DNA from: Candidatus Heimdallarchaeum aukensis
Lineage (GTDB): Archaea > Asgardarchaeota > Heimdallarchaeia > Heimdallarchaeales > Heimdallarchaeaceae
NCBI GenBank assembly: GCA_021513695.1
Contig: CP084166.1
Location: 2,336,001-2,400,000 of the forward strand
Reading direction: 5' to 3'
Length of the DNA: 64,000 bases
The notes beneath the pieces were generated by a model. That model was not told where the DNA came from. It did no database searches and saw only the letters and a list, made by a program, of their open reading frames with translations. Shown piece by piece: positions 13,301 through 53,037 of this stretch (position 1 is the first letter of the stretch; the number at the start of each line of letters is the position of its first letter). The position numbers and the translations under genes are program-made.

Positions 13301-13449
13301 ATAGCATAGATAATGGTTCGTTTGATTTTATTAGGGGTATAAACACTTACCTTCTTGCTATTTCAGCTACAATTGCACTCGTTACTGCAAAAAAACTTCT
13401 TTTTCCTAATAAAAAGAGGTGTACCCAAAAAAAAAGAAATAAATGGTGA
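10339..13449 (+). CDS. large membrane protein with Lys-rich cytoplasmic N-terminus, TM bundle, transglutaminase-like core and C-terminal TM (probably catalytically inactive)
   Basis: TGase-like core 'AYISLTVMALRRLGIPARPVMGF...LYYWVEVLMPLD' (around nt 11750-11930). Compared with the consensus 'G.C....RxLGIPAR.V.G...HAWvEv', Cys appears replaced by Ser and His by Tyr. About 5 N-terminal TMs and a final TM 'YLLAISATIALVTA'. Confidence 0.55.
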   Translation: MATKVKKLKTTKRLKHKPAVVPKKTRKIKTKKSKLPITTVEEKKLKVKNIIFTIIFGALTVAAFFFRKIISNLNPPSDPVTELIITVVRLFLIGLFTYITLLSFETYKVKFHPKPLRILLTVITLIVFFPLTLFKYYTRHNVWRIIFVGMTIISLFMTFFGSYLTGVLYRDSLNGAEPDKNPIDTSFLSSPFIINLPVDIESFLDLLNNLGDLDDLTLETSVANITAQNGFLGNFLYRWDVYDEYNPDGWEFEKSNEATLYNIPQDERGEPSDFDSATDVRMSIQQSIYTATSGVDISLLSTWNSIYRPHIDWESDWSDNVRDLQGNSVGSSDTSIYYDTQDQLHLKTKADKSDPLTPFQGTFEYTTYFMYEDDIDFIMQNSLDYEDLDSNYIQSEYSAFLQAPNGYYDTISTAVTNFADNEIGSTIDSSTSVYDVVSSVIQNVLNKGNLENIFGATNVDTGGEDPANVLARNEDAPSSAYISLTVMALRRLGIPARPVMGFAVGSGTDSYREIKLANLYYWVEVLMPLDTDNDGSADEYRWGQFQIGPYPVDETTFVFCDNSLNAQYDLNLEIFEQTTGDVRTMSSGEGEIYLVDHGVTYTIQVSATRSGNPSENVPITLKSYSASELQGGFSTSILSGGIEISQQPIVTDASGVATLTYEFTPENYSTFDLADQTGTTYFIVALNGLNSYSAKGIAIFPSGYLTDVVLNASKQTIPNPQNLAETKTYYLIQQGWKYEMFSYLYKEGPPGTDPLENRTVNYYLLTPEQLQDIINGASIDPTQFTLIGSATTDPDGNSSVFSVNETTQVDYFTSLTVNTTYAILAVYGFNYSYAPIVIIDGLIASVKVNDTLLDTGTDGYTMWEEINVTLSMQPPNGYAEPLADEDVWLWVVYETDWQEYDGSIDGTTYNSTLNSSTRSYYIGHRKTNSNGQIIENYLIDATQLGAGKFKIVAIYSERWEGSEDIFIVVGPALSVIINTKNTVILDSYSIDNGSFDFIRGINTYLLAISATIALVTAKKLLFPNKKRCTQKKRNKW

Positions 13450-16400
13450 GAACTATGAAGTACTATAATCACATAAAAATTTTTACGGTTTTCATTTCTT
13501 TAATTATATTCTTGTCGAGTTTGCCAGTTTATTCATTTAATTATGAAAAGTTAGTTACTAAAAGTGATCTTGATCCTACAATAGAGAATAATTTAATTAA
13601 TTATGAAAATAAGAATAGAGAGTTAAATGTCTATTCTAATTTTAAGCATAGTTCTCATTTTACTAAGAGAGAGAAAAAAACACCTGGTAATTATGAATAT
13701 TATCGTTCTCCATTAAACATCGGGTTATATGTTAGTATTCCTGGGACATCTTCTCTCTCTTCTGATTCTTCAAGGTTAAAATTGAGTATTAGCAGCCCTA
13801 CAGAGGGAACAAAACTATTTCGAGGAAATACAATTACAGTTAGTGGTGTTCTCCGTTCAGCAGCCCCAAACGATTTCTGGGATGGAGAAACAGTAGAAAT
13901 ATACTATAATTTAACTGAAGCAGAGTTTAAGGTGGATCCTGATTCTTATCGTAGTTCTAACTATTATGTTACTTCCGTGGTTACAAATAGTCAAGGAGAA
14001 TTCACTGCAACAATCAGTACATCCACGCTTTCTGCTGATTTTCGCTCAAAAGTAGGAAATATTACAATTTTTACGTGGTTTGACGGGAATCCTGACAAAG
14101 GACGTGGGTCTGGTTCACCAGGAAGTTCTTATGTGTTTGTTTATGGTGGGCTGAAAACAGATGTGAGTTATTCTGTAACAAATCCCAACCAACCTTATTC
14201 ATTTACAACACGGATATTGTTTGATAATAATACTGAAGTTACAACTAGTGGAACTCAGTATCACATTCAAGTAACTTGGCTAACAGATAACAGAGTAGAC
14301 ATAAATGGTAATTTTACTTTTACAACTAACTCTCACACTTATTCAAATACAAGCCCCTCTACAATTCAAACAGTAAAATATGAATCATATTATGATAGTT
14401 CACAGCTTTCCTTAAATTTCTTCGTAACTACAGGAGATACTTCTTTCAGCAATAAACTTCTTCATGCAGTAAAGCAAGCAACTACAAGCGAACAAGTAGT
14501 TGTTTCTTCTTATTATGTTACAGGAACAGGATTGACTGATGCAGATATTGCAATACCTCTTGATTCATACATAACAGTTTATGCAAATGTATCTGATTCA
14601 TCTGGATTGGTAGGAGCTGGTTACAACGTTACTTTAGAATTCTATCATGGGACAACTAGATATAATCTAACTACGATTCAGACTAACTCTTCAGGTGCTA
14701 TCCAGACAAAACACTTCGTTGATCATAATAACATCGCTGATATAACAATTAACAATGCTTTTTATATAACAATGACAGTAAGCTCTTCAGAGTTTGGAGG
14801 TGCAGATGTTACTCCTGATTCTCTTGGATCAGTTTTAGAATCAATAATTAATTCTATTAGCATTTCAATATCTAATACAACAATTTTCTATACTTCTGGT
14901 AAATCAATTTCATATACTGTAACAGTTACAGATAATTTTGGAAGAGTTGCTCCACTTGCTCAGTTCCAAGTGGACTTTCCTGGATTAAGTGTAATTACTT
15001 CTTCAACTGGTTCTTCTGGAACAAAGACATTATCATCTGTCATTCCTTCTTATACAATTCATACTCAAACAAAAACAATAAACGTTACAGCATTATTTAC
15101 TGATGGAGGTACCTACAGATATTTCCTTAATGGTACTCCTCAAAATAATGATACATTCAATATTTATTTTGACTTAACTTTAACACTTCAAGGTCCCTAC
15201 GACTCAAATATTGTTGACGGTGAGAGTACCTCTTACTTTAATAATACTTATTATTCGTTTTTCCAAACTGGAAATATATATAACCTCACTGTAGTTGATG
15301 AATGGGGAAGAAATCCCGTAGGCGCACCTTTCTCACTAAATTTTGAAGGACAAACCGTTTCTGGTGTTGTAACATCTGGAAATAACTTTATTGAATTAGA
15401 TCCTGATTTTAACCCTACTACTGGGGTAGATATTAATGTTCCCACAACAATCTCCTTAGTTGCGGAAGCCGGTGAAGCTAATTATCAATCTTCGATTTCC
15501 CATACTGTTAGCATATATGGCCCTGATCTTGATGCTCCTGTTATAAATGGAGAAACTTTATCCCCCAATCCATTTACAACTGCTTCACATGAACCATTCT
15601 TTAATGTTAGTTTTAGTATAAGTGTTTCTGATGTAGGTAGTGGTGTTAGAAGTGTAATTATTTATTATCAAGTAATCGAATCTAATGATAGTAGTTTACT
15701 TAACCCCGCAAATTGGATTACTTTGAACCTTACTGACTTAGGTGGGGGTATATGGTTTGGTTATATAAATACCACAATTGATTTTGCCTTACAATATGTT
15801 CATTATTATATTGAAGTGAAAGATTATGCAGGTTACGGGTTGCAAGAAAATGGAACAAGGCAACCAACTGCACAATATGATGAGAATTTTGGGTTAACAG
15901 GTTACCTATACAATGAAACACATACAAACTATTATCAACTTGGAGATTATGAACCTCCAGTAGAGGTCGCAGTTCCTACTACTGTAGACTCTCCAGACCC
16001 TAAAAGTCCTTATCTTAATATTACTGTTTATGTAAATGATAGTCTTATCTATACTGGTGTATCTCAAGTTCTTATTTATATTAATAGAACTGCAGTGGGT
16101 GGTACTACAGAAATAAATTGGGTAAATGGAGTTCAGATGACTAACATTCCAGGAACAAACGCATGGTTTTACCAATTGTTAGCAGAATATAATTACCAAT
16201 ATAGTTGGTACTACGTAGCTTACGACAATGCTGAACCATCTCCAAGAACTTTCAAGAGTCAGACATATACATACGAGGCAATTGATGATACTCCTCCGAT
16301 TATTTATAATATCGATGTTGTTCCTTCTACTGGTCTCCTGTGGAACAGTACTATGAACTTCACTATAAGAGTTGATGATGTTCAAAATGAAGTAGAAAAT

Positions 16401-17147
16401 GTTACGCTGTTCATTACTCTGACAGATCCAAACGGTGTTGAAGTGGAAAATGAAGCAATAGCTTTAACAGCTCAAGCTGGTACAATTATTTATAGTTACA
16501 CCCTAGATCTGAGTGTTTTTAATTATTCAGTATATGGAGGATATTTATTAGAATATCATTTCTACGTGGAAGATACTATAGGTAATAATATTAGTACGAC
16601 TTCTGTTCAATTAGCTATTAGTAATCCTGCGCCACCCAATCGTCCTCCTGTTGGAGATCCAGCTGATCCAAGTAGTGAGACCCCTATAGGTGGTATTGTT
16701 GGAGGAGCAATTGGTGGTATTGTTGCTCTTATAGTAATTCTTTTCCTATGGTTCAATAGACACTCTCTCCGAAGTTATGCTCAGCAACAAACATTGAGAA
16801 AGAGACTAAGAGACTATCTTCGCGAAATACTAGAAGACATCAAACGTTTGGGTTCAGAAAGCCGTTACAAAGAAGCTGTTCTAAAAACCTGGCAAGTAAT
16901 TGAGGGTGTAGGAAGAGAATTTTTTGATACTCCTAGGTTTAGACATCAAACACCTATGGAGTATGCTACTGTTCTTTCCAGAAGAGGAAAGATAGATATG
17001 GCGATACTCAATACTCTTTCGGAGTATTTTGAAAAAGCAAGATATGGCGCTGAAGTGATAACTGAAACAGACTTCAATGCAACCATATCTGCATTAATGA
17101 AAATAATTAACCAGTTAGAAGCTGGTGAAATGGAAATAGAAACATAA
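13443..17147 (+). CDS. giant secreted multi-beta-sandwich (Ig-like) surface protein with C-terminal TM and cytoplasmic DUF4129 domain
   Basis: Signal peptide 'IFTVFISLIIFLSSLPVYS'. About 1000 aa of Thr/Ser/Asn-rich beta-rich repeats. TM 'IGGIVGGAIGGIVALIVILFLWF', then 'TPRFRHQTPMEYATVL...YFEKARYGAEV' (DUF4129 signature). Confidence 0.55.
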   Translation: MVRTMKYYNHIKIFTVFISLIIFLSSLPVYSFNYEKLVTKSDLDPTIENNLINYENKNRELNVYSNFKHSSHFTKREKKTPGNYEYYRSPLNIGLYVSIPGTSSLSSDSSRLKLSISSPTEGTKLFRGNTITVSGVLRSAAPNDFWDGETVEIYYNLTEAEFKVDPDSYRSSNYYVTSVVTNSQGEFTATISTSTLSADFRSKVGNITIFTWFDGNPDKGRGSGSPGSSYVFVYGGLKTDVSYSVTNPNQPYSFTTRILFDNNTEVTTSGTQYHIQVTWLTDNRVDINGNFTFTTNSHTYSNTSPSTIQTVKYESYYDSSQLSLNFFVTTGDTSFSNKLLHAVKQATTSEQVVVSSYYVTGTGLTDADIAIPLDSYITVYANVSDSSGLVGAGYNVTLEFYHGTTRYNLTTIQTNSSGAIQTKHFVDHNNIADITINNAFYITMTVSSSEFGGADVTPDSLGSVLESIINSISISISNTTIFYTSGKSISYTVTVTDNFGRVAPLAQFQVDFPGLSVITSSTGSSGTKTLSSVIPSYTIHTQTKTINVTALFTDGGTYRYFLNGTPQNNDTFNIYFDLTLTLQGPYDSNIVDGESTSYFNNTYYSFFQTGNIYNLTVVDEWGRNPVGAPFSLNFEGQTVSGVVTSGNNFIELDPDFNPTTGVDINVPTTISLVAEAGEANYQSSISHTVSIYGPDLDAPVINGETLSPNPFTTASHEPFFNVSFSISVSDVGSGVRSVIIYYQVIESNDSSLLNPANWITLNLTDLGGGIWFGYINTTIDFALQYVHYYIEVKDYAGYGLQENGTRQPTAQYDENFGLTGYLYNETHTNYYQLGDYEPPVEVAVPTTVDSPDPKSPYLNITVYVNDSLIYTGVSQVLIYINRTAVGGTTEINWVNGVQMTNIPGTNAWFYQLLAEYNYQYSWYYVAYDNAEPSPRTFKSQTYTYEAIDDTPPIIYNIDVVPSTGLLWNSTMNFTIRVDDVQNEVENVTLFITLTDPNGVEVENEAIALTAQAGTIIYSYTLDLSVFNYSVYGGYLLEYHFYVEDTIGNNISTTSVQLAISNPAPPNRPPVGDPADPSSETPIGGIVGGAIGGIVALIVILFLWFNRHSLRSYAQQQTLRKRLRDYLREILEDIKRLGSESRYKEAVLKTWQVIEGVGREFFDTPRFRHQTPMEYATVLSRRGKIDMAILNTLSEYFEKARYGAEVITETDFNATISALMKIINQLEAGEMEIET

Positions 17148-17148
17148 G

Positions 17149-17655
17149 GTGAATAAAATGTTCGGATGGGCAAAAAAGAGAAAAAGGTTAAAAAAATTAG
17201 ATCAACTGTTTAATGCTGCTATGGCTGATGTAAGAATATTTGAGCAAAGGCAAGACTATAGAGGAGCAGTTATTGCTTCATTTGGAGGTCTTGCAAGCAT
17301 TGCAGAGAACTTGATAAATCTTACAAGAGCTCCACATCAGACAGGTAGAGAATTTGGCATGCAAGTTGCAGAACAAGCAAACATCTCTACAGAAGTCATG
17401 GATGAGTTTCTTACATCTTTTGAAATAGCTAGATACACAGAAAGAGAAATAGGTTATGATGATTATCAAGAGGCCGTACAACGATTAGATGTTTGCTTTA
17501 GAGGAATACGAGAGCAAGGTATTCAAGAAATAACTGAAGTAACATCTTCAAAGAAAGAAAAGAAACCAAAAGTGAAAACAGCTAAAGCAGCAAAAACTGA
17601 AGTTAAAACTACTAAACAGTTAAAAACTCGAAAACAGTTGAAAACTAGAAGATAA
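17149..17655 (+). CDS. stand-alone DUF4129-like protein with highly basic Lys-rich C-terminal tail
   Basis: 'APHQTGREFGMQVAEQ...FEIARYTEREIGYDDYQEAV' resembles the DUF4129 core. C-terminus 'KKEKKPKVKTAKAAKTEVKTTKQLKTRKQLKTRR'. Confidence 0.4.
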   Translation: MNKMFGWAKKRKRLKKLDQLFNAAMADVRIFEQRQDYRGAVIASFGGLASIAENLINLTRAPHQTGREFGMQVAEQANISTEVMDEFLTSFEIARYTEREIGYDDYQEAVQRLDVCFRGIREQGIQEITEVTSSKKEKKPKVKTAKAAKTEVKTTKQLKTRKQLKTRR

Positions 17656-17703
17656 TGGTTTGGTTCTAAAAAAAGATAAATGAAAAAAAATGGTGTGTAA
17701 TGT

Positions 17704-19488
17704 ATGTCCGAAAAAGAAAATCAAGAAATAGTGGACGAATATGAACAAGAACTTGTGAAAAAAGAAGATGATTCATCAAAAAAGAAAAAAGTAAAGAAGG
17801 CTAAAGTTAAAAGAAAAAGTAAAAAACCAAAGAAAAAATTCAAACTTAGAAAAGTAAGGTTTACAAAGTATTCTTTAGCTATGACCTTGCTATTTCTCAT
17901 AGTTATCGTTCCACTGTTTATTGGTTTAGTTGGATTAGGTGGAAGAAGTGTAAAATTTTCCATCTACAACACCGGTTGGGATGGTCTTTCCACTGTATAT
18001 AATACATTACAAGCTGAAAACAAATATGAAATATCAAACGGAATGTCAAGTTTAACTATTTTAAATAGATTGAATAGCAGTGGAGTTCTCGTAGTTATCG
18101 GACCAACAACAAGTTACAACTTTGCTGAGACAATTAGTCTCGTAACCTTTCTGGTAAGAGGAGGAAGTTTGATAGTTGCTGACGACTTTGGTTCAGGAAA
18201 TAAAATATTCGAACCGCTTTGGAACGTTATTGCAACCTATGACTCTCTTGTATCTTTAGGACTTGTTCCTTCTTTAACAGATATATTCTTCGGAAATCAA
18301 AGTGCACCATCAAATGTTACATCAGTTGAAGATTTAGCTGGTGCAGCAATTTTTGAGATGCTAGCAGGAATGTTAAAAGCAATAGGTTTTAATCAAACGG
18401 TATTAATGGATGCAGGAAGTAATTATGGTGGAGTAAGTTCTCAACCGTTGTTAAAGGATACAAATCCAGATAACCCCTTAACTGCTGGAATTACAAAGGG
18501 AGTTCAAATGGAATTTGGTACGGTATTAAGTGTTAAAATCAATAACTCTCGATATAATCCATCCACAGGACGTTATGAGTGGTATACAGATTGGGTTCCC
18601 TTGCAGCCTTTGTCTATAAATGTCACAATTGAAGGGGGAGAGTATGGAAATCTTGAGCCAATTTTCATTGAAGATGTGATGTTACCTTTTCTCTCGTTTT
18701 TCACAACTACGACATCGTGGATGGAGTCGAATTTTAGAGATGCACTTACTGGAGAAGCAGTTCCCAATGAAGGAGAATGGGGAAACACTGCCTTTGCCCC
18801 TATTTTGTCAATACCAATAGGTAGGGGAAAAATAGTTATGATTGGAGACCCTGATATATTCATAAATAAATGGATAGAAGATACAGAAAATAATGATAAC
18901 TTGCAATTTTGTCAGAATTTGTTCAATTATGTAACCGAAAATATGGTTGCAAATACAACAAGTGGAAAAATACCTATAATATTTGATGAAGGACATACAC
19001 AATATAAATTCTATAGTCCTGCTCTGGTATCAACCATTTTAATGAGGTTGATTACTGAAATGTCCATGTATCCACTTTATTCACCTTTTGTTCCTATCAT
19101 GTTTGCTGTTATAGCATATCCCCTTATCCCAAAAGCTAGACGATTGGCCCCTGTATTATGGACTAGATACAGAGGAGAAAGAGGAAGGTCACGATTTGAA
19201 CGCGAAATAAAAAGAATATTAGAAACTGGAAGTTACAGTGAAGCAGTAGGTTTACTTTATAGGTCCATGTTACGGGGAGTAAGAAAAGTAGATACCTCTG
19301 CCGCAAGTTCACCTAAATCTTTGGCAGATTTCTTTATTTCAAGGGGATACCCCCTAAAAAGAGGAGCGTTGGTAAGTGAATTCGAGCGAATTGATCGCTA
19401 TTTACAGAGACCAAAGTTGCTCCCACAATCTGAATTTGAAAAAATGTTGCAGTTTATCAAGAATTTAATTGATACTCTGCCTAAATAG
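17704..19488 (+). CDS. DUF4350-like membrane protein (module 2) with Lys-rich N-terminus
   Basis: N-terminal poly-K segment, TM, then 'TGWDGLSTVYNTLQAENKYEIS...GVLVVIGPTTSY...FLVRGGSLIVADDFGSGN' (DUF4350-like); second TM near the C-terminus. Confidence 0.55.
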   Translation: MSEKENQEIVDEYEQELVKKEDDSSKKKKVKKAKVKRKSKKPKKKFKLRKVRFTKYSLAMTLLFLIVIVPLFIGLVGLGGRSVKFSIYNTGWDGLSTVYNTLQAENKYEISNGMSSLTILNRLNSSGVLVVIGPTTSYNFAETISLVTFLVRGGSLIVADDFGSGNKIFEPLWNVIATYDSLVSLGLVPSLTDIFFGNQSAPSNVTSVEDLAGAAIFEMLAGMLKAIGFNQTVLMDAGSNYGGVSSQPLLKDTNPDNPLTAGITKGVQMEFGTVLSVKINNSRYNPSTGRYEWYTDWVPLQPLSINVTIEGGEYGNLEPIFIEDVMLPFLSFFTTTTSWMESNFRDALTGEAVPNEGEWGNTAFAPILSIPIGRGKIVMIGDPDIFINKWIEDTENNDNLQFCQNLFNYVTENMVANTTSGKIPIIFDEGHTQYKFYSPALVSTILMRLITEMSMYPLYSPFVPIMFAVIAYPLIPKARRLAPVLWTRYRGERGRSRFEREIKRILETGSYSEAVGLLYRSMLRGVRKVDTSAASSPKSLADFFISRGYPLKRGALVSEFERIDRYLQRPKLLPQSEFEKMLQFIKNLIDTLPK

Positions 19489-39577: not shown

Positions 39578-40138
39578 ATGAAGGAAACAAAAAATCGTGC
39601 TGTTTCTCCAGTTATAGGAACAATGCTAATGATTAGTTTAGTTATTGCGGCGAGTGTATTTGTGGCAATTTTTATTGGCAATATTAGAGTTCCTGCAATT
39701 GAAATTGGAGAAGAGACTCCCTCTCTTTATTCAGTAAACATTGATGTTATTTATTTTAACATAACTGATACTAATTCTAATGGACTAAATGATACACTTG
39801 TAGTAAAGTTTAATCTGGATTTAGATTCCCCAACAATTTATGTACAAGATATTGACATTTTGTTGCCTACAGGAAACTTACTTGATGATATAGTTCCATG
39901 GGTTATTATTGATTCAAATAGCTCTTGGAATTCAGACTTCTATGGATATTCTGTTTTGAATGGTAGTTTGAATGCTACATTTACTGTACAATGTTATGAC
40001 CTATCTAAGTCTGTAGGTGAAATTGCTCCAGGATATTCATTTTATTATTTAATTAAATATAACTATGTTTCTGTCAAAGGAAACCAATTGACTCTTATTT
40101 CTGATGTTTATCAATCAGAGTTAATAGAGACAAAATAA
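39578..40138 (+). CDS. archaeal type IV pilin-like protein (class III signal peptide, DUF361-type)
   Basis: N-terminus 'MKETKNRAVSPVIGTMLMISLVIAASVFVAIFIG' carries the archaeal prepilin peptidase motif (basic residue, then A/G followed by VSPVIGT and a hydrophobic helix); beta-rich remainder. Confidence 0.6.
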   Translation: MKETKNRAVSPVIGTMLMISLVIAASVFVAIFIGNIRVPAIEIGEETPSLYSVNIDVIYFNITDTNSNGLNDTLVVKFNLDLDSPTIYVQDIDILLPTGNLLDDIVPWVIIDSNSSWNSDFYGYSVLNGSLNATFTVQCYDLSKSVGEIAPGYSFYYLIKYNYVSVKGNQLTLISDVYQSELIETK

Positions 40139-40193: not shown

Positions 40194-40949
40194 GTGCTTA
40201 CTAATTTGAACATAATGTCCCTTGAACCAAAACGAGCTTATAAAATAGTTTTAATTGGAGACCCAGAAGTAGGAAAAACTTCCATAAGAAGAAGATATAT
40301 GGGAAAAACGTTTAAAGGAGAATATTTGAAAACAATAGGTGCTGACTTTGCAGCACAAAAAGTAGAAATTGAAGATGAGGTCGTTTTATTAACAATATGG
40401 GATCTAGCTGGGCAAACTATCTTTCATGGAATGCGTTCTTCCTTTTACCAAGGATGTAAGTCTGCGTTAGTTGTTTTTGATGTAACAAATGTTGAAAGTT
40501 TGAACAATGTAGAAAAATGGACAGAAGAAGCTGTAACCTATGCAAAAAGTTCATTACAAGAGATTTATTTAATAGGCAATAAAATAGATTTGAAGAAAGA
40601 GAGAGTAGTTACAAAAGAACAAATAGACAAAAAAGTAAAACAATTGGAATCTTTAGTTAACTTTCCTATTAGAGTTTATGAAACATCTGCTCTTACAGGA
40701 GAAAATATCCAATCTTTATTTATGGATCTAAGTAGACGATTAATTATTAGTGATAACGTTAAATTTGAAGAAGAAATAGAAGCTAAACGTGCTCATGATG
40801 TTAAGAAAGAAAAAAGAAAAGAACCAGGTAAAGATGTTGATTATAAATCTAAAGATGACTTGAAAGAGATAATAAACCATATCGAGCTTCATGTTGAGAA
40901 AATAAATGACTTTATCAAATTATTGAAAAAACGATTAGATAAACTGTAA
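40194..40949 (+). CDS. Rab/Ras-like small GTPase (Asgard-type eukaryotic signature protein)
   Basis: G1 'GDPEVGKTS', switch I 'KTIGADF' (RabF1-like IGxDF), G3 'WDLAGQ', G4 'GNKIDL', G5 'ETSALTG'. C-terminal 60-aa K/E-rich extension without a CAAX box. Probable true start is the ATG at 40215. Confidence 0.85.
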   Translation: MLTNLNIMSLEPKRAYKIVLIGDPEVGKTSIRRRYMGKTFKGEYLKTIGADFAAQKVEIEDEVVLLTIWDLAGQTIFHGMRSSFYQGCKSALVVFDVTNVESLNNVEKWTEEAVTYAKSSLQEIYLIGNKIDLKKERVVTKEQIDKKVKQLESLVNFPIRVYETSALTGENIQSLFMDLSRRLIISDNVKFEEEIEAKRAHDVKKEKRKEPGKDVDYKSKDDLKEIINHIELHVEKINDFIKLLKKRLDKL

Positions 40950-45743: not shown

Positions 45744-46214
45744 TTGCTGATTTTTGTTTCACATAAAAGGTCAAGTGTTTGTCTTATGCGTTGCCCCTAC
45801 TGTGGTTATCATAAAATAGTTAAGAAAGCAGATAAAAGATTAATCCATGAGTGTCCTAGATGTAAGTATCAATTTGAAGTCAGTTTTTCTAAAATGATGT
45901 TTGAGAAAATTTTTTCTATACCTTTTTCTTCAGTCATTGTCTTCTCGGTTATCCAAGTGATGTGTTTTTCTCTGTCACTTATTTCAAATGAATTTTTATC
46001 TAAATCTTTTTGGAATAGTTTCACTGTATTTAACGCTCTCTTTCTTGTAGTGCAGCTCTTTTTATATTTCATTTACGTAGAACCCAAACAGATTTTCCTA
46101 ATAAAAGATAAAGTGAGTTTTATACGTAAAATTGTCTATCTTTCCCCTTTCTTAAAAATCTCAATGTTAATAGTTGTCACAATAATTACTATTCAAATTA
46201 TAGTCATTAAATAA
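45744..46214 (+). CDS. small zinc-ribbon plus membrane protein, hypothetical
   Basis: 'CPYCGYHKIV...CPRCKYQF' followed by 3 hydrophobic helices; likely real start at the ATG around 45787. Confidence 0.35.
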   Translation: MLIFVSHKRSSVCLMRCPYCGYHKIVKKADKRLIHECPRCKYQFEVSFSKMMFEKIFSIPFSSVIVFSVIQVMCFSLSLISNEFLSKSFWNSFTVFNALFLVVQLFLYFIYVEPKQIFLIKDKVSFIRKIVYLSPFLKISMLIVVTIITIQIIVIK

Positions 46215-46299: not shown

Positions 46300-47067
46300 T
46301 TAACTCTTTATTCTTATTTTTATCCTCTTAGAGCACCAATTTATTATGCTTTTTGCAATAATAAACTTCTGAAATTTTTTGCCAATCTTCTCTTTCGTGA
46401 GAGTGTTTACTTTTGAGTATTTTCCTATTTTTTCTCCAAAGTCATACCCAAAAAGGATAACTTTTTTTATTTCTGAATTTACGGCAAAACAAACAGCTCT
46501 ATCACCATCTGTAAAACCTAAAAAATTTCTAAAATTTCCTAATTCTTCTGTTTGTGTTGAAAATAACACGTTTCCTGCCTTTATTAGTTTGGGTAGATAT
46601 TTCTTTGCTTGTTCAAGATTATCCCCGTGAATATGAACAATCATAGTAGAACCGAGTCTTTGGGCTTCTATTTGATCTTCTACGCAACCGTCTAAATCAG
46701 AAATAATAACTTCAGGAATCAGGTTCTGTTCTAATAAAAATGTTGTAGCCCCATCAACTGAAATAAGAACGGTGTTAGTAACATTTTTTGATTTTATTTC
46801 TTTAATTTTTTTTGCTGTTTCATTTGATAAACTATTTCCAGGGGCTATAATTATTGCTGTTTTTCTTTTTAATTCATTTACTAACTCTTCAACCCTTAAA
46901 TTAGGTTTGAATAAGTTATCAATATCCTTCACAGCATTTAAGTCGCTTTGTGGAGAAATATTTAGAAAATCACATATCGCAGGATACCAATGTTCTAGCC
47001 AAGTGGAAAGAGAAAAATCTAGTTTCTCAAGTTGAAGAAACAATGTATTTTCAGTCTTAAAAATCAT
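46300..47067 (-). CDS. 6-hydroxymethylpterin diphosphokinase MptE-like (DUF115) protein
   Basis: 'RKTAIIIAPGNSLSNE' (GxGPSL-like) and 'PEVIISDLDG' (DxDG) are in the order and spacing typical of the MptE/DUF115 family. Confidence 0.5.
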   Translation of the reverse strand: MIFKTENTLFLQLEKLDFSLSTWLEHWYPAICDFLNISPQSDLNAVKDIDNLFKPNLRVEELVNELKRKTAIIIAPGNSLSNETAKKIKEIKSKNVTNTVLISVDGATTFLLEQNLIPEVIISDLDGCVEDQIEAQRLGSTMIVHIHGDNLEQAKKYLPKLIKAGNVLFSTQTEELGNFRNFLGFTDGDRAVCFAVNSEIKKVILFGYDFGEKIGKYSKVNTLTKEKIGKKFQKFIIAKSIINWCSKRIKIRIKS

Positions 47068-48832
47068 CTAAATCTTCCTTTGTTATCTTTCTTTTGCTCT
47101 CTAGCTTAAGAAGAGCAGTGTTATATCTACTAACTACATCATTGAAGTTTATAAAACCAATGACTTTCTTATCATTTTTTAAGGATACTACTGGCATCCC
47201 TTCAATATTATTGTCTTTTAACTTTGCGATGACTACTCTTAATGTATCACTTGGTTTAACGGTTATTACGTTTTCAGTCATTACTTCGTGAACATACTTT
47301 TTATTAGAAGAAAAACCTCTTGAGAAATCTGAACTCGCAATAATTCCAACAAGATTATCTTCTTCGTCAAAAACAGATATGGCTGAAACTTTGTGCAGAT
47401 ATAGTAGTGAAATTGTATTCTTAAGTAGGTCATTCTTTTTTACTTTGGGAAAAACAGTATCCATTGCTTCAGAAACTTTTATTCCTTCCAAGATGTCAGT
47501 ATTGCTTATTTTTTTCCTTAATATGACTTCTTTGCTTTGTACTTGTCCAGTATATAGACTGAAATCCATGGAAACTACAAAAGCTGCAGCATTTGATAGA
47601 ATTATTGGAATAACAAGAGAAGGAAATCCTAACATTTCTAAAACAATAAGCATAGATGCAATCGGAGTTTTTGTAGTGGCTGCATGCATTGCAGACATTC
47701 CTACTATAATAAATGCAATATAATTGACGCCAGGAAAGATCTTAGAATAAACAGCCCCCAAAACAGCTCCTGTTACTAGCGATGGACCCATGACTCCTCC
47801 AGATGCACCCATTCCAACACATGTGGAAGTAACAATAATTTTACCAAGAAAAAGAAGAAGTAGAATAGAAAAACCTATATTTTCACCTTTCTCTAAAAGA
47901 AAATTTATCGCTTGAAAACCTGTTCCTTGTAAAGATAGACCTTCTGGTAATCCTAAACTGAACAAAAAGACGATAAGAGCTGTAATTGTCATTCCAATAA
48001 AAGGGAGAATATATGACCATTTTATGTATCTATTAACTAAATTTGTAAGGGATTTATATAGTAATGAAAAACCTATTCCTGAAATTCCAGAAATAACTCC
48101 TAATAATAAGAACAAAAGAGAATTAACAATTGTAAGCTGTACTGGAGCTGTTTCAATATCTAAATAAACAGGGTGGGAGTTTAGTGCTGTCAAAATTGCC
48201 ATTGAAACTAAAAGAGAAATTGCACTTCCCAAAAGAGCAGGAAGAAATACTGTTTCATCAAGATCGTGTTTGTATGGAACTTCAGAAGCAAAAACTGTTC
48301 CACCTAAAGGAGAACGAAAAACTGCTGCAGTGCAAGCTGCTGCTCCTATTGTTATAGCATGTGTAGCATCATCTTGGTTGAATTTCATTTTTTCTCCTAA
48401 AGAATAAGCCATCGCTGCTCCTATTGTAACAGATGGTCCTTCTCTTCCTGCAGGAGCATTTACTCCCAAAGTGAGAAAACTTGCTACAAACTTTGACCAA
48501 ATAACTCGAATAGGAATTTTCTTTCCCGTGTTTTTATGTTCTAAAATATAGGAAATTCCTGCTCCTCGCACTTCATCAAACCCAAAATAAAGGAAGAGTG
48601 ATATTAATGCTCCAGTTAATGGAAAAGAAATCAAAATAGAAATTTGAGACAACCATTTTTGAGTATTAACTACAAGGCTTGCAAACAAACCCATTACAAC
48701 TCCACTTATAATACCAGTAATGATTGCAAAGGGAAACCATTTTTTGCTATATTTCCAATATTTGATAAAAACCTCTTTAAAATTCCTAAAAAATCTCTTA
48801 TTTTCTTTATCATTTATTGCTTTTTTTTTCAC
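47057..48832 (-). CDS. ClC-family chloride channel/transporter with C-terminal CBS pair
   Basis: 'GVNAPAGREGPSVTIGAA' (GREGP selectivity motif), 'GASGGVMGPSL'; about 10 TM helices; C-terminal CBS-like 'VSAISVFDEEDNLVGIIASSD' and 'MPVVSLKNDKKVIGFINFNDV'. Confidence 0.85.
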   Translation of the reverse strand: MKKKAINDKENKRFFRNFKEVFIKYWKYSKKWFPFAIITGIISGVVMGLFASLVVNTQKWLSQISILISFPLTGALISLFLYFGFDEVRGAGISYILEHKNTGKKIPIRVIWSKFVASFLTLGVNAPAGREGPSVTIGAAMAYSLGEKMKFNQDDATHAITIGAAACTAAVFRSPLGGTVFASEVPYKHDLDETVFLPALLGSAISLLVSMAILTALNSHPVYLDIETAPVQLTIVNSLLFLLLGVISGISGIGFSLLYKSLTNLVNRYIKWSYILPFIGMTITALIVFLFSLGLPEGLSLQGTGFQAINFLLEKGENIGFSILLLLFLGKIIVTSTCVGMGASGGVMGPSLVTGAVLGAVYSKIFPGVNYIAFIIVGMSAMHAATTKTPIASMLIVLEMLGFPSLVIPIILSNAAAFVVSMDFSLYTGQVQSKEVILRKKISNTDILEGIKVSEAMDTVFPKVKKNDLLKNTISLLYLHKVSAISVFDEEDNLVGIIASSDFSRGFSSNKKYVHEVMTENVITVKPSDTLRVVIAKLKDNNIEGMPVVSLKNDKKVIGFINFNDVVSRYNTALLKLESKRKITKEDLDDF

Positions 48833-48998: not shown

Positions 48999-50804
48999 TT
49001 GCTTAAAATCGAGAGTTATAGGGGATTAGTGATGAAATTGCGATTGCCACATGTGAATTTTAAGTTACCGAGTTATACAAAAAAATGGTTGCTATTAGAT
49101 GTATTAGGAATAATTATTGGTATTATTGGAGGGTTAGGAGCAGTATTCTTTCGTTTTATTTTAAAGTACCTCAAGATCTTCTTTTTTGATATCTTGTTAC
49201 CATTAGTTACAATAAATGTTGGTGGATTTAATTTAGGTTATATATTTCTTCCAATAATTGGGGCTTTAATTGTAGGGCCTGTTGTTATGTTTTTTGCTCC
49301 TGAAACTAAAGGACATGGTGTTCCTGAAGTGATGGAATCTGTAGCATTAAAAGGAGGGGAGATAAGAAAAAGAGTTGCTTTTCTAAAAGTGGCTGTTTCT
49401 TCTATAACTATCGGTTCTGGAGGCAGTGCGGGAAGAGAAGGACCAATTGCCCAAATAGGTGCAACACTTGGCTCATTCTTTGGAGGACTATTCAAACTTG
49501 ATCCACAACATAAAAAGCTGATGGTTGTTTGCGGTCTATCTGCTGGTATAGCTGGGACATTTAATGCTCCACTTGGCGGAGCGTTATTTGGAATGGAAGT
49601 GCTGTTGAGAGGAATAGGATTATTTAACGCAATGCCAGTAATTTTGTCTTCTGTAGTTTCTGTAGGTGTAGCTTCAGTGTTGATTCCGATAGCATTAGGT
49701 GAAGAAGTAGGACCTGCTTTTATTATAGATATAGCAACATCATGGAATCCTGCAGAACTGCCTTTATATATTGTTTTAGGAATAGTATTTGGATTATTGT
49801 CAATATTATGGGTAAAAGGATTCTACTTTATAGAGGATATTTTTGACAAACTAAAAATTTATCCTCATCTAAAACCAGCAATTGGAGCCTTTTTTACAGG
49901 ATTAATTATTGTCTTCTTCCCAACATATGGTATCGCTGGAGTTGGTTATGAAGGGATAGAACTTGCTCTTGTTGGAGAAATAACTTTGGGTTTATTAATA
50001 GCTCTAGGTTTTCTCAAAATTCTAGCAACAGGATTCTCAATTGGTTCGGGAGGAAGTGGAGGAATCTTTGCTCCTAGTTTATATATAGGCGCTATGTTTG
50101 GAACTGCAATAGGCATGGTTTTTAAATTAATTTTTCCAGGAACTGTGTCTAATTGGACAACATATTCATTAGCTGGTATGGGCGCTTTATTTGCAGGTGC
50201 AGCACAAGCTCCAATAAATGTAATAATAATGATTCCAGAGATGACCAACGATTATTTATTGATACCACCAATTGCTATTGCTTCATTCATCAGTTTTTTC
50301 ATTAATTGGATATTCATGAAAGGGACTTCAATTTACACAATAAAATTAGAAAGAAGAGGAGTTAAAATTAGAATGGGTAGTCCTTTCATTTTAGAATTAG
50401 TGAAAAACGAAGAAATAATGACAAAAGATGTGGTTACTCTCCAAGAAAAGTTTCCTGTTTCAATCCTAGAGCTATACTTTGAAGAACATCAACACCATGG
50501 ATATCCAGTGCTAAATGAAGAAAAGAAACTTGTGGGAGTTGTAACCTTGGGAGACTTGCAAAAGTTAGAAGAGGAAGAAAGAAAAAACAAAATCATTGGA
50601 GATATTTGTTCAAGAGAGCTTGTGACCGTTAAAGCAGAAGAAACAGTCTCTGAAGCTTTAAGAAAAATGAATGAGTTTGATATTGGTAGAGTAATTGTTG
50701 TAGATAGTGAAGACCCTAATAAAATAAAAGGAATAGTTACGAGAACTGATATAATGAATGCTTATCGTATTGCTTCACAAAACCCGGCACTTACAACACT
50801 TTAA
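48999..50804 (+). CDS. ClC-family chloride channel/transporter with C-terminal CBS pair (second paralog)
   Basis: 'GSGGSAGREGPIAQIGA', 'GSGGSGGIFAPSLYIGA'; C-terminal CBS-like 'GYPVLNEEKKLVGVVTLGDL' and 'RVIVVDSEDPNKIKGIVTRTDI'. Confidence 0.85.
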   Translation: MLKIESYRGLVMKLRLPHVNFKLPSYTKKWLLLDVLGIIIGIIGGLGAVFFRFILKYLKIFFFDILLPLVTINVGGFNLGYIFLPIIGALIVGPVVMFFAPETKGHGVPEVMESVALKGGEIRKRVAFLKVAVSSITIGSGGSAGREGPIAQIGATLGSFFGGLFKLDPQHKKLMVVCGLSAGIAGTFNAPLGGALFGMEVLLRGIGLFNAMPVILSSVVSVGVASVLIPIALGEEVGPAFIIDIATSWNPAELPLYIVLGIVFGLLSILWVKGFYFIEDIFDKLKIYPHLKPAIGAFFTGLIIVFFPTYGIAGVGYEGIELALVGEITLGLLIALGFLKILATGFSIGSGGSGGIFAPSLYIGAMFGTAIGMVFKLIFPGTVSNWTTYSLAGMGALFAGAAQAPINVIIMIPEMTNDYLLIPPIAIASFISFFINWIFMKGTSIYTIKLERRGVKIRMGSPFILELVKNEEIMTKDVVTLQEKFPVSILELYFEEHQHHGYPVLNEEKKLVGVVTLGDLQKLEEEERKNKIIGDICSRELVTVKAEETVSEALRKMNEFDIGRVIVVDSEDPNKIKGIVTRTDIMNAYRIASQNPALTTL

Positions 50805-50874: not shown

Positions 50875-53037
50875 ATGCAGTATAAGAAAAAAACTTTCTA
50901 TTGTTTGTTATTTATTGGGGTTATATTTACAACTTTGTTCTTGTATCTATACCCATTCAATTCTAAAATAACTTTTGTAAGTGATTATAAAGATTATACA
51001 TATTCATCTAATATTGAGATAGTAAAACAAGATTACACAGAGGATTTTGATAGAGAAATAAGTTTATCAGATTTTCTTACTTATTCAATTGAACCTTATG
51101 TTCTTGATTTTGAAAAAGATCAATCATTCGAATTTTTTGTTATCTCAAATCGTTATAATGAAACTGAAGGAAATAAATTATTTTTACTAAAAGATGCTAG
51201 TATTATGCCTAACTGGCCAATTCAACTAGATGTGGATATTGAGGATGTAGTAGGTCAAGAGACTTATGATAACGAACAAATTGTAATAGTAAGAGCTAAA
51301 GATAAGAATAGTATCAATCAAACCTTATTTTATGGCATAAATAAAAATGGAGACGTGATCAGTTCATTTACAAAAGTAGTAGGAGAAACATTTAGTGGAG
51401 ATACTTTATTTGGTGACATTGATGAGGACGGTCTAAATGAATTTGTGATACATAGTAACTATCAGGTCTTTGTGTATGAAGATGATTTTACATTAAAAGA
51501 GAATTGGCCAAAAGAAACAAATGAGACAATCTTTTCAGAAATTGTTGTGGAAGATGTAAATTTAGATGGAAGAAAGGATATTGTAACCCTAACTGAGCAA
51601 GGACTAATCTTTGTATGGGATTGGAATGGAACATTGTTAAGTCACTTTACTAAAAGGATTGATCTTCTATATTACAAAAATGGGGAAGGATTTAGAGTCA
51701 TGCCCATAGTGACAGACAGTAATAAGGATGGAGTAGTAGAGATTTTCGCTTCATCAACCTTTGGTTATCTCTATTGTCTAGAACTATCTAAAGCAAAAAC
51801 AAGCACTTATTATCAAAAATTACCTAATGCTATTTATAGTTTAAATCAAGCTACTGCTAGCGATATAAACAAGGATGGACTAATTGATATCATACAACCT
51901 TTCTCCGATGGTTTTTATATTTTTAATTTTAATAAAAGCTTGGAAGTTAAGACAAAAGTAGAAGGGTCTTATTCTTTCACGGGAGCTCCTGTACTAGCAG
52001 ATATAAACAAAGATAATACACTGGAACTAATTTTTGTTTCCGACTATCGTTTACTAGTTTTCAATTATACTGGGGTTGAAAATCAAAATTATGAAAGATC
52101 AATCCCCTATGCTTATAGTAATGGAATTTCACCTATTGTATTTGATAGTGATAGTGATAGTGAGATTGAGATAGTCTATTTAAATAATTATGGAAAAATA
52201 AAAATATTCGAAACAAATGATTTTGGATTGCTTCCATGGTTGTTCAAGTATTCTTCTCCTCTACATTCTGTTAATAATGACTATGATAGTGATGGATTGT
52301 TAAATTATGAAGAAGAAATAGTAGGCAGCGACCCTCTAAACTCTGACAGCGATTCTGATACAGTTTATGATGGAGAAGAAGTTAATCAATATGTGATGAA
52401 TCCTATTATTGCTGATTTATCTTTAGATAGTGATGAAGACAATTTAACTAATATTGAAGAAGTAGACATTTATTTAACAAATCCGTTAAATCCAGACAGT
52501 GATTTTGACGGGTTAAAAGATGGAGAGGAAGTACTTATTTATTCAACGAACCCATTATCTATTGATTCAGACGAAGATGGGTTGCCAGATTCTTTTGAAG
52601 TAGAATATACTTTTTTAGATCCAAATGATGCTGATGATGCTCAGTTAGATTATGATGGAGATAATTTGTCAAATTTAGAAGAATACCTTTATGGAACTGA
52701 TCCAAGTAATCCTGATACTGATTCCGATACTCTTTCTGATGGAGATGAAATTTATAGATACTTTACGAATCCTATAGTTCCTGATGCTGATGCTGATTAT
52801 GATGGAGATGGCTTAACCAATGTTGAAGAAGTAGATATTTATCATACTGACCCATCTTCAGCAGATAGCGATGGTGATGGAATAAATGATGGTGAAGAAA
52901 TAGAAAAGGGGTCAGACCCTAATGATCCACAAAGTATACCTAAAACATCAAAAATTCATTTTGATACATTTTTCATGGTAATTTCACTTTTTTCTCTAAT
53001 CTTTGTAATTACTTTAGTAAAAAGGGCAAGGAATTAA
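50875..53037 (+). CDS. secreted FG-GAP/integrin-alpha-like beta-propeller protein with C-terminal thrombospondin-type-3-like DxDxDG repeat array and TM anchor
   Basis: Signal anchor. At least 6 FG-GAP-like blades ('FGDIDEDGLNEFVI', 'VEDVNLDGRKDIV', 'VTDSNKDGVVEIF', 'SDINKDGLIDII', 'LADINKDNTLELIF', 'FDSDSDSEIEIVY'). Then about 8 acidic repeats 'NPxxxDSDxDGLxDGEEV' (nt ~52280-52930). C-terminal TM 'FFMVISLFSLIFVITLVKRARN'. Confidence 0.6.
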   Translation: MQYKKKTFYCLLFIGVIFTTLFLYLYPFNSKITFVSDYKDYTYSSNIEIVKQDYTEDFDREISLSDFLTYSIEPYVLDFEKDQSFEFFVISNRYNETEGNKLFLLKDASIMPNWPIQLDVDIEDVVGQETYDNEQIVIVRAKDKNSINQTLFYGINKNGDVISSFTKVVGETFSGDTLFGDIDEDGLNEFVIHSNYQVFVYEDDFTLKENWPKETNETIFSEIVVEDVNLDGRKDIVTLTEQGLIFVWDWNGTLLSHFTKRIDLLYYKNGEGFRVMPIVTDSNKDGVVEIFASSTFGYLYCLELSKAKTSTYYQKLPNAIYSLNQATASDINKDGLIDIIQPFSDGFYIFNFNKSLEVKTKVEGSYSFTGAPVLADINKDNTLELIFVSDYRLLVFNYTGVENQNYERSIPYAYSNGISPIVFDSDSDSEIEIVYLNNYGKIKIFETNDFGLLPWLFKYSSPLHSVNNDYDSDGLLNYEEEIVGSDPLNSDSDSDTVYDGEEVNQYVMNPIIADLSLDSDEDNLTNIEEVDIYLTNPLNPDSDFDGLKDGEEVLIYSTNPLSIDSDEDGLPDSFEVEYTFLDPNDADDAQLDYDGDNLSNLEEYLYGTDPSNPDTDSDTLSDGDEIYRYFTNPIVPDADADYDGDGLTNVEEVDIYHTDPSSADSDGDGINDGEEIEKGSDPNDPQSIPKTSKIHFDTFFMVISLFSLIFVITLVKRARN

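Follow-up and report, generated by a model that had tools for sequence, protein, structure and literature searches.

In Candidatus Heimdallarchaeum aukensis, the 64-kb window of DNA analysed here carries an open reading frame whose product is 100% identical in database comparison to NCBI K9W45_10675 from the same organism. As judged from its sequence, the product is a membrane-anchored protein that combines an FG-GAP_3 propeller with a TSP3_bac stalk, and it is predicted to lie at the cell surface. The positions of its parts, together with those of a second gene discussed below, are collected in Table 1. Scanning the window against Rfam and for tRNAs returned no matches.

Table 1. Coordinates within the window of the propeller-stalk gene, its parts and a candidate partner gene.
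Feature	Extent	Position	Strand	Basis
Whole gene	720 aa + stop	50875..53037	+	ORF list, ATG start; identical database protein; Pfam
N-terminal signal-type segment	aa 1-28	50875..50958	+	Hydropathy, model helix, orthologs
Linker	aa 29-54	50959..51036	+	Low confidence, poorly conserved
Propeller head, eight blades	aa 55-462	51037..52260	+	
Acidic stalk, nine TSP3_bac-type repeats	aa 463-690	52261..52944	+	Pfam, register, model, alignment, composition
C-terminal transmembrane helix	aa ~696-716	52960..53022	+	Hydropathy, model, orthologs
Cytoplasmic tail, very short, basic	RARN (K716 before it)	53023..53034	+	Sequence
Candidate partner gene	142 aa	45786..46214	+	Alignment, gene order elsewhere

The N-terminus opens with a basic n-region (MQYKKK) followed by a hydrophobic core of about 20 residues (hydrophobic segment at aa 7-28), and the full-length structure model places a helix at residues 4-24. 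A basic n-region and hydrophobic h-region are present in 14/14 orthologs, and the segment would serve as a Sec signal peptide, if cleaved, or otherwise as a signal anchor. Cys10 was dismissed as a lipobox cysteine, as the sequence context is poor and it is not conserved among orthologs. The linker that follows is modelled at a pLDDT of 26-46 and is gapped and variable in the ortholog alignment. At the other end, the transmembrane helix has a hydropathy of 2.1-2.3 and spans residues 696-719 in the model; its hydrophobicity, but not its sequence, is kept across orthologs, all of which end in K/R-rich tails of 4-8 residues. A conserved 'DP.DP.S.P' ahead of the helix resembles a truncated tenth repeat. 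We also rejected a sorting signal of the archaeosortase/exosortase type (PGF-CTERM and relatives), for which no NCBIfam model matched at E<=1 and around which the residues flanking the helix are not conserved.

The head matches FG-GAP_3 (PF13517) over five stretches at 43.6 bits, against a cut-off of 26.9 (E 4.6e-11), and the structure model read together with the repeat register gives 33 strands in eight units of about 50 aa across residues ~55-462. Canonical D-x-D/N-x-D/N-G blade loops start at residues 181, 227, 281, 330, 376 and 424, with degenerate versions near residues 78 and 156. The Asp-rich DxDxDG metal-binding motif is located in the AB-strand loop of VCBS-type blades (PMC8023676), and the head belongs with the FG-GAP_3/VCBS propellers on its profile score above the gathering score, its AB-loop motif and its closed toroid. 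Residues of the propeller face are strongly conserved among orthologs, and W114-P115, W211-P212, W248 and W455 are invariant. N-glycosylation sequons are not enriched (8 observed versus 7.5 expected), and N216 and N251 are the sole two invariant sequon positions.

The stalk matches TSP3_bac (PF18884) at 58.4 bits, against a cut-off of 25 (E 6e-16, five stretches scored). Its register consists of nine 12-residue loops of the form D1-x-D3-x-D5-x-x-x-D/N9-x-x-E12, starting at residues 469, 491, 518, 541, 564, 592, 614, 641 and 664 with periods of 22-28 aa. Each unit comprises an EF-type calcium loop, a short helix and a Pro-containing linker, and this helix-loop pattern is modelled at a pLDDT of 76-93 in the full-length structure. 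The repeats alternate between DxDxD(G/N)LxNxEE and D(S/T)DxDxxxDG(D/E)E, giving about four pairs; Asp and Glu make up 30% of the stalk, and Cys is absent from residues 466-690. Across the six frames of the window, all nine matches to the strict 12-residue pattern fall in this open reading frame, and DxDxDG occurs 10 times within it versus four times elsewhere. Because the strict pattern is confined to this one frame, the loop motifs are not a product of chance. A model of the stalk built separately from a six-sequence alignment was poor (pLDDT 66.6, pTM 0.30), and a fold search with it gave no match at E<=0.001, so that at the fold level the choice between TSP3 and dockerin rests on sequence profiles.

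This architecture bears out the features described by the initial annotation, which had correctly placed the 720-aa frame on the forward strand with an ATG start and had predicted the C-terminal transmembrane anchor, which we locate at about residues 696-716 with RARN after it. It had also proposed at least six FG-GAP blades and about eight tandem acidic repeats; calcium-type blade loops and a tandem calcium-loop array are indeed present, but both counts were too low, with eight blades and nine repeats found. The structure prediction it called for yielded a closed toroidal fold of eight blades, and the suggested Pfam scan placed FG-GAP_3 and TSP3_bac above their cut-offs while PF01839, TSP_3 and Dockerin_1 went unmatched.

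A family of 1:1 orthologs, found in Asgard genomes only, retains the whole propeller, stalk and transmembrane design, and no loop ligand position varies among 14 orthologs at 39-83% identity. The gene is a conserved single copy in a syntenic housekeeping neighbourhood, with propellers ~30-35% identical across loci, a setting that differs from that of the usual fast-evolving adhesin and would suit a structural role in the envelope just as well. We rejected an operon with any of the adjoining genes (CLC channel, pterin synthesis, NUDIX, ETF), as their order and orientation vary between loci; this linkage reflects regional synteny. The acidic array and transmembrane helix also occur in many other Asgard proteins with different heads, where the array is always membrane-proximal, ahead of the helix, and the pair would be a reusable display cassette among Asgard surface proteins.

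Among characterised proteins, the closest solved relative is Bap1, of the Vibrio cholerae biofilm adhesins Bap1/RbmC (PDB 6MLT). Bap1 shares ~13% identity with the Heimdallarchaeum protein; unlike it, Bap1 is secreted rather than membrane-anchored, carries a beta-prism insertion, lacks a TSP3 stalk and binds Vibrio polysaccharide, a ligand specific to Vibrio. The bacterial extracytoplasmic eight-bladed propellers BamB and YxaL (PDB 8ADG, 4IMM, 7EQ5) are close in structure at 15-16% identity, but they are PQQ-like and have neither DxDxDG calcium loops nor an acidic stalk; BamB is a protein scaffold in OMP assembly. For the stalk, the sole solved chain matching by sequence is region B of Staphylococcus aureus Bap (PDB 7C7R/7C7U; E 7e-6 by profile and 2e-4 by single sequence); the superposition spans 43-45 residues at 0.8-1.1 A and 40-42% identity. 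Region B carries a calcium-sensing EF-hand pair in a surface adhesin, and the matched stalk segment appears to map onto this pair; in S. aureus, however, a single pair sits inside a larger domain and calcium regulates amyloid-like aggregation, whereas nine units form the entire Heimdallarchaeum stalk. The TSP3_bac family is also shared with Myxococcus CglD/MtsD and with OmpA-TSP3 proteins, and bacterial arrays of this kind adjoin an anchoring module (an OmpA domain or lipid anchor). Matches to the CglD (NF033765) and MtsD (NF047639) NCBIfam models are partial, cover the repeat region only and fall far short of the equivalog thresholds (58.8 versus 400 and 35.5 versus 800 bits). The COMP-like array of CglD is linked to calcium-dependent adhesion and traction, but the head of CglD is VWA/beta-integrin-like and is accompanied by Cys-rich EGF-like repeats, and the protein is anchored as a lipoprotein, in contrast to the C-terminal helix and archaeal membrane of the Heimdallarchaeum protein.

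Assembled as it is from widespread prokaryotic modules, the product is probably an adhesin or receptor. The specific form that we somewhat favour is a calcium-loaded type-I surface protein whose head, held on the stalk, binds a ligand. Calcium would fill ~15-17 loops of head and stalk, folding and stiffening the ~225-residue stalk and keeping the head away from the membrane. With its central or top face the head would then bind a conserved ligand; a glycan or exopolymer is the most plausible candidate and a protein the next, and the result would be attachment to matrix, a surface or another cell. Ligand binding is here modelled on Bap1 and on the Trp-containing inter-blade loops of VCBS-type lectins, and would hold by analogy. 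Counting against a lectin-like head, the propellers nearest in structure, BamB and YxaL, are not lectins but protein scaffolds.

An unlikely alternative is that the protein is a structural envelope component (a coat, glycocalyx-like spacer or calcium-buffering layer) rather than a ligand-specific adhesin, with the propeller making lateral protein-protein contacts and the acidic stalk setting envelope thickness and sequestering calcium. The 1:1 single-copy orthologs in their conserved housekeeping neighbourhood would suit such a role, as would the ~30-35% identity among propellers, the roughly 30% acidic residues of the stalk and the protein-interaction scaffolds BamB and YxaL as nearest folds; a general envelope architecture also predicts that the stalk-helix pair should recur in many other Asgard proteins, as it does. 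Yet no self-assembly motifs are evident, an essential envelope protein might occur more widely in Asgard than in one clade, and the highly conserved propeller face is also expected for a specific ligand. We regard as very unlikely that the propeller has catalytic activity as a lyase or hydrolase of polysaccharides, akin to lambda-carrageenase or PL-type FG-GAP propellers, which would make the protein a membrane-tethered exoenzyme. In favour, Beta-prop_CGLA (PF25292) scores 26.6 bits, just below its cut-off of 26.8, and is matched in precomputed annotation of many orthologs, and in bacteria secreted enzymes such as M4 and S8 peptidases and pectinesterase-like beta-helices carry TSP3_bac arrays. 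The PF25292 score stays short of the gathering cut-off, and its best stretch covers profile positions 2-72 of 316.

The initial annotation had described both modules as best known from eukaryotic adhesion proteins and had taken their fusion to suggest calcium-dependent cell-cell or cell-matrix interaction, an interpretation that is supported in part: the modules are a prokaryotic VCBS-type propeller and a Cys-free TSP3_bac array. We give scarcely any credence to the reading that the protein is truly related or ancestral to metazoan integrin alpha, with thrombospondin-type repeats fused on, and is an ESP passed vertically to eukaryotes, and consider it largely refuted. At the level of the supercluster, integrin alpha has FG-GAP-like repeats and DxDxDG AB loops in common with this protein, and it too is a type-I transmembrane protein of the cell surface whose propeller head sits on a leg. 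Eukaryotic ITFG2 and CRTAC1 also give weak profile matches, Foldseek ranks integrin alphaV 35th and 39th, and passages in PMC9258230 and PMC9197732, citing Liu et al. 2021, place 'integrin repeats' among Asgard ESPs. Integrin alpha, however, has seven blades rather than eight, Ig-like thigh and calf legs where this protein has its TSP3_bac array, a GFFKR tail in place of K-RARN (K/R-rich, 4-8 residues in orthologs), and an obligate beta subunit, of which the window neighbourhood and the ortholog loci show no counterpart in the form of a VWA gene. Classical FG-GAP (PF01839), Ig-like thigh/calf domains and TSP_3 (PF02412) were not among the Pfam matches at E<=1, nor did thrombospondin or COMP chains match by sequence at E<=1; integrin likewise gave no sequence match. 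The likeness to thrombospondin/COMP T3 repeats extends to Asp-rich calcium binding, with thrombospondin-1 (2RHP) at a Foldseek probability of 0.10 only, but eukaryotic T3 repeats are disulfide-knotted by Cys pairs that the stalk lacks. It is just as improbable that dockerin-like F-hand pairs plug the protein into a cohesin-bearing, cellulosome-like scaffold, the possibility that the initial annotation had raised against its own reading: units of calcium loop and helix in two alternating subtypes do formally resemble duplicated dockerin segments, but Dockerin_1 (PF00404) has no match at E<=1 against 58 bits for TSP3_bac, no dockerin occurs among the sequence (PDB) or fold matches of the stalk, nine tandem units stand in place of one pair, the array lies membrane-proximally before the helix as a stalk would rather than as a terminal plug, and the window showed no cohesin gene.

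Returning to the adhesin or receptor reading, a cytoplasmic tail of 4-5 residues would be too short for signalling, so a partner would be required to couple the protein to the cytoplasm; speculatively, this may be the zinc-ribbon membrane protein encoded at 45786..46214. It has an N-terminal CPYC...CPRC zinc ribbon with a weak Zn_ribbon_RPB9 match and about 3-4 hydrophobic segments, and the Cys pairs are invariant across orthologs aligned at 30-36% identity; a homology search with this small protein found relatives at 81-95% only. Its orthologs lie directly downstream of the propeller-stalk gene in all loci examined outside Heimdallarchaeum (L001-L005, L009-L016), and within the genus, including this genome, the gene is displaced or unlinked. 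A 140-aa frame at locus L007 (8191-8613) was rejected as a counterpart, not being homologous. We infer a functional link between the two genes solely from this gene order. In some Loki-type caspase versions of the display cassette, a zinc ribbon is fused to the protein's own cytoplasmic tail. That the two proteins form a two-subunit transmembrane unit, in which the propeller/TSP3 protein binds an outside ligand in a calcium-dependent manner and the zinc-ribbon protein relays this to the cytoplasm, with the cassette as a general Asgard display platform, strikes us as decidedly unlikely; if true, the unit would represent outside-in coupling of the integrin type, arrived at independently as an analogue in an archaeal lineage close to eukaryotes.

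Asgard 'integrin repeats' have been cited, in the passages noted above, as a hint of archaeal roots for eukaryotic adhesion machinery. In this Heimdallarchaeial family the integrin resemblance holds only at the ancient blade-superfamily level, and the protein is an assembly of prokaryotic modules; it therefore should not be placed among the precursors of integrins or thrombospondins. Nothing in the mechanism of a propeller-on-stalk protein is unprecedented. Models of eukaryogenesis based on syntrophy give surface contacts a central place, which lends some value to a tractable surface receptor from this clade: it provides a testable candidate for the attachment of Heimdallarchaeia to minerals, matrix or partner cells and flags a conserved small membrane protein as its candidate partner. 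The cell surface of Asgard archaea may in large part be organised by the recurrent stalk-anchor cassette.

The open reading frame proposed for the FG-GAP/TSP3 gene in the initial annotation was recovered as placed, with an ATG start and a product of 720 aa (see table), in a window of ~32% G+C in which no RNA genes were found. The product is 100% identical to NCBI protein K9W45_10675 of Candidatus Heimdallarchaeum aukensis (database match P0001, on a 3.08-Mb contig). The Auka hydrothermal vent field has yielded two circularised Heimdallarchaeum genomes, of which that of H. aukensis is one (PMC8813620). The protein belongs to the Pfam families FG-GAP_3 (PF13517; 43.6 bits against a cut-off of 26.9) and TSP3_bac (PF18884; 58.4 bits against 25), each with five scored stretches. 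All remaining matches at E ≤ 1 were sub-threshold (Beta-prop_CGLA, 26.6 against 26.8; the Binary_toxB Ca-binding domain; STT3_PglB_C), and the classical integrin FG-GAP repeat, eukaryotic TSP_3 and Dockerin_1 were absent among matches at this level. Membership tests also led us to reject assignment to integrin alpha, eukaryotic TSP type-3, dockerin, CglD/MtsD (NCBIfam equivalog scores far under the cut-offs) or lambda-carrageenase. In a six-frame translation of the 64-kb window, all nine occurrences of the strict pattern D-x-[DN]-x-[DN]-x3-[DN]-x2-[ED] fell within this reading frame, as did ten DxDxDG motifs versus four elsewhere; these motifs are not a composition artefact.

An AlphaFold2 model built from a 32-sequence alignment (mean pLDDT 82.9, pTM 0.69) was confident except for a linker at aa 25-51. 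It grouped 33 beta-strands of aa 55-462 into eight ~50-residue units of four strands each, so that the FG-GAP-like blades with Ca-type loops described initially stand, while their count of at least six is corrected to eight. The canonical D-x-D/N-x-D/N-G loop follows the first strand in six of the eight blades (aa 181, 227, 281, 330, 376 and 424); loops of the first two blades are degenerate and better preserved in orthologs (e.g., 'VLDIDDD'). A propeller profile search reached only three PDB chains, ITFG2 (E 1e-4), Bap1 (1.7e-4) and CRTAC1 (4e-3), which places the head in the FG-GAP_3/VCBS supercluster of Pereira and Lupas, a group that also holds integrin-like propellers (PMC8023676); the head is not of the 7-bladed integrin type. 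The propeller is very conserved across the ortholog family, with four invariant tryptophans (W114 and W211, both in 'NWP' inter-blade loops, W248 and W455) and two invariant N-X-S/T sequons (N216 and N251), although sequons overall are not enriched.

The tandem Ca-type repeats of the acidic array (aa 463-690) were likewise confirmed, at nine instead of about eight, with periods of 22-28 aa. Every repeat opens with a 12-residue loop matching the EF-hand ligand pattern D1-x-D3-x-D5-(G/T/N)6-x-x-(D/N)9-x-x-E12, followed by a helix of 6-8 residues and a Pro-containing linker, and the loops alternate between the subtypes DxDxD(G/N)LxNxEE and D(S/T)DxDxxxDG(D/E)E. The array is 30% Asp+Glu and 2% Lys+Arg, with no Cys. 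Ligand positions of these nine loops and of the six canonical blade loops are all invariant in 14 orthologs of 39-83% identity. A fold search with a low-confidence model of the stalk (pLDDT 66.6) gave no match at E ≤ 0.001 and no dockerin among its matches; locally, the structure that superposed best was S. aureus Bap domain B (43-45 residues, 0.8-1.1 Å, 40-42% identity), followed by thrombospondin-1 (probability 0.10) and binary-toxin Ca-binding domains. Sequence searches with the stalk likewise matched Bap domain B, and no other solved chain. The matched segment probably corresponds to the paired EF-hand loops of the Bap region-B construct, in which mutation of positions 1/3/12 abolishes Ca2+ sensing by the adhesin (PMC7785521).

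At its N-terminus the protein carries a basic MQYKKK followed by a hydrophobic core of ~20 residues (aa 7-28), and at its C-terminus a hydrophobic helix (aa ~696-716) followed by RARN, which upholds the TM anchor of the initial annotation. All 14 aligned orthologs keep this layout, but sequence conservation does not extend to the TM segments. These sequence signals fit a signal peptide or signal anchor at one end and a plain type-I TM anchor at the other; NCBIfam models at E ≤ 1 and the ortholog alignment showed no signature of the archaeosortase type.

Most non-orthologous matches in the full-length search share the acidic array. Among 16 such proteins with unrelated heads, we observed caspase heads (Lokiarchaeota and a marine-sediment metagenome protein), right-handed beta-helix heads (Heimdallarchaeota, among them P0111, another H. 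aukensis protein encoded on the contig of the present gene), LVIVD ('Asgard group') and BamB-like (Heimdallarchaeaceae) heads, and, in unnamed proteins, Kelch, SBP_bac_5, caspase and other FG-GAP heads. In all 16 a TM helix follows the final acidic loop at a distance of 20-36 residues, and bacterial matches carry the array ahead of an OmpA peptidoglycan-binding domain or attached to secreted enzymes. Because it recurrently adjoins the anchor, the array is best explained, judging from architecture, as a membrane-proximal spacer or stalk.

A full-length search recovered ~25 co-linear orthologs (720-750 aa, 40-83% identity), the named ones labelled Heimdallarchaeaceae, Heimdallarchaeota or 'Asgard group'. 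With the propeller only, a gap separated the last ortholog (218 bits) from the next match (77 bits); the first matches beyond were prokaryotic FG-GAP proteins (many of them Bacteroidales T9SS cargo, plus Thorarchaeota and Nanoarchaeota), and no eukaryotic proteins were among the matches listed. When one genome for each of 185,579 GTDB species was scanned by pattern plus tblastn, nine loci emerged, all of them in Asgard MAGs: seven carry the label Heimdallarchaeota or Heimdallarchaeum, and one each 'Promethearchaeati' and 'Thorarchaeota'; H. endolithica ranks first (87%). In an exhaustive phmmer search with the propeller against 1.84 billion cluster representatives, only about five clusters gave one co-linear match over the full length (E ≤ 1e-59), and 4,357 other proteins matched at the level of blades (E ≤ 1e-3), most of them large and with multiple repeats. 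The orthologs thus form a narrow, lineage-specific family built from a ubiquitous unit. The sequence searches gave no evidence of recent horizontal acquisition of the whole gene or of a specific link of the family to eukaryotes. One 'Thorarchaeota' MAG (locus L016, JBHLQZ010000013.1) carries a full-length ortholog with 33% propeller identity and the zinc-ribbon gene downstream, as in Heimdallarchaeia; either the family reaches beyond Heimdallarchaeia or this MAG is mislabelled or contaminated.

Close neighbors of the gene include two divergent CLC-CBS channels, MptE-like and PTPS genes of pterin synthesis, a NUDIX hydrolase, ETF subunits and an SBP_bac_5 protein. This set is kept around orthologs of only ~30-35% propeller identity, in varying order and orientation; the linkage is a matter of regional synteny, not of an operon. 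The 70 nt between the CLC stop codon and the gene are A/T-rich and open with an oligo-T run; on the other side, a convergent gene lies 10 nt away. A single CLC gene is present in most distant ortholog loci, the second copy accompanying the local inversion in the window. One linkage is of another kind. In all loci outside the genus Heimdallarchaeum (L001-L005, L009-L016), a same-strand gene of ~141-145 aa follows the FG-GAP/TSP3 gene, its start overlapping the stop or lying within ~25 nt of it. Its product has an N-terminal CPYC...CPRC zinc ribbon with invariant Cys pairs, then three to four hydrophobic segments; it lacks a curated family, and its sole family match is a weak Zn_ribbon_RPB9. In the window the ortholog lies 4.7 kb upstream instead of downstream, because the MptE-CLC-FG-GAP block was inverted and a second CLC gene added, and an 83%-identical relative (L006) shares this layout. 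Zinc ribbons also end the cytoplasmic tails of some caspase-headed TSP3-TM proteins (P0085, P0062, P0064), a parallel that is no more than suggestive.

Features of the window, ortholog loci (L) and matched proteins (P)
Feature	Position	Strand	Remark
FG-GAP/TSP3 gene	50875..53037	+	
CLC chloride channel with CBS domains	47057-48832	-	directly upstream of FG-GAP/TSP3 gene
CLC chloride channel with CBS domains	48999-50804	+	directly upstream of FG-GAP/TSP3 gene
Zinc-ribbon polytopic membrane protein, ~142 aa	45744-46214, probable start 45786	+	ortholog of downstream gene
Zinc-ribbon gene, other loci	L001 8175-8609; L003 8187-8624; L004 6601-7026		also L009-L016
Pilin-like gene	39578-40138	+	Pilin_N, 31 bits
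Ras/Arf-family GTPase	40194-40949	+	Ras, 148 bits
Large-gene run	10339-19488	+	
ORF, 1066 aa	31120-34320	+	no Pfam match above threshold
ORF, 506 aa	37913-39433	+	no Pfam match above threshold
ORF, 378 aa	42566-43702	+	no Pfam match above threshold
ORF, 313 aa	53613-54554	-	no Pfam match above threshold
Acidic-array + TM proteins, unrelated heads	P0027, P0043, P0085, P0108, P0111, P0035, P0030, P0032, P0113, P0062, P0064, P0028, P0042, P0044, P0055		

Elsewhere in the window, an archaeal type IV pilin-like gene adjoins a Ras/Arf-family small GTPase gene, which belongs to the syntenic block shared with distant Heimdallarchaeia (L001). A stretch of consecutive large genes (1036-aa transglutaminase-like, 1234-aa with DUF4129, 594-aa with DUF4350) looks like a conserved envelope- or protein-modification cluster. 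The 313-aa ORF is syntenic next to PTPS and NUDIX in every ortholog locus examined.

Alongside the domain membership, predicted fold, topology signals, conservation and distribution established here, we infer that ~15-17 canonical acidic loops bind Ca2+, which would order the highly charged, Cys-free stalk and display the head away from the membrane, where the propeller may bind a ligand. The best analogy for such binding is Bap1, whose 8-bladed propeller holds an exopolysaccharide tetrasaccharide at its center through four Trp and a bound metal ion (bioRxiv 10.64898/2026.08.03.742583), beside the four invariant Trp of the present family; VCBS-type lectins build sugar pockets from the G-W inter-blade loop (PMC8023676). 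Circumstantially, H. endolithica persisted in enrichment only if rock was transferred along with medium (PMC8813620). The main alternative to a ligand-binding adhesin is a structural envelope role, favored by the behavior of the family, which is single-copy, syntenic and like that of a core gene, and by top fold matches to BamB and YxaL, which are protein scaffolds. Catalytic, dockerin and true-integrin readings were each disfavored by specific tests.

In its mode of action the protein would come closest to Bap1/RbmC, Ca2+-binding propeller adhesins of bacteria, if set on a TSP3_bac array such as those of CglD, MtsD and OmpA-TSP3 proteins, the CglD array of Myxococcus being TSP3/COMP-like and tied to Ca2+-dependent adhesion (bioRxiv 10.1101/2023.10.19.562135); unlike in those bacterial proteins, a TM helix at the C-terminus serves as the anchor, and the membrane is archaeal. 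According to PMC9258230 and PMC9197732, Liu et al. 2021 had already described 'integrin repeats' from Asgard archaea, and existing NCBI and UniRef labels for the orthologs are hypothetical or FG-GAP-repeat proteins. To these we add the 8-blade assignment of the head and its bacterial-type affinities, the Cys-free, EF-loop character of the stalk, the narrow range of the family (Asgard, and mostly Heimdallarchaeial), its conserved zinc-ribbon membrane neighbor, and a stalk-TM cassette common to other Asgard surface proteins, which suggests that the acidic array with its TM helix is a general surface-display cassette of Asgard archaea.
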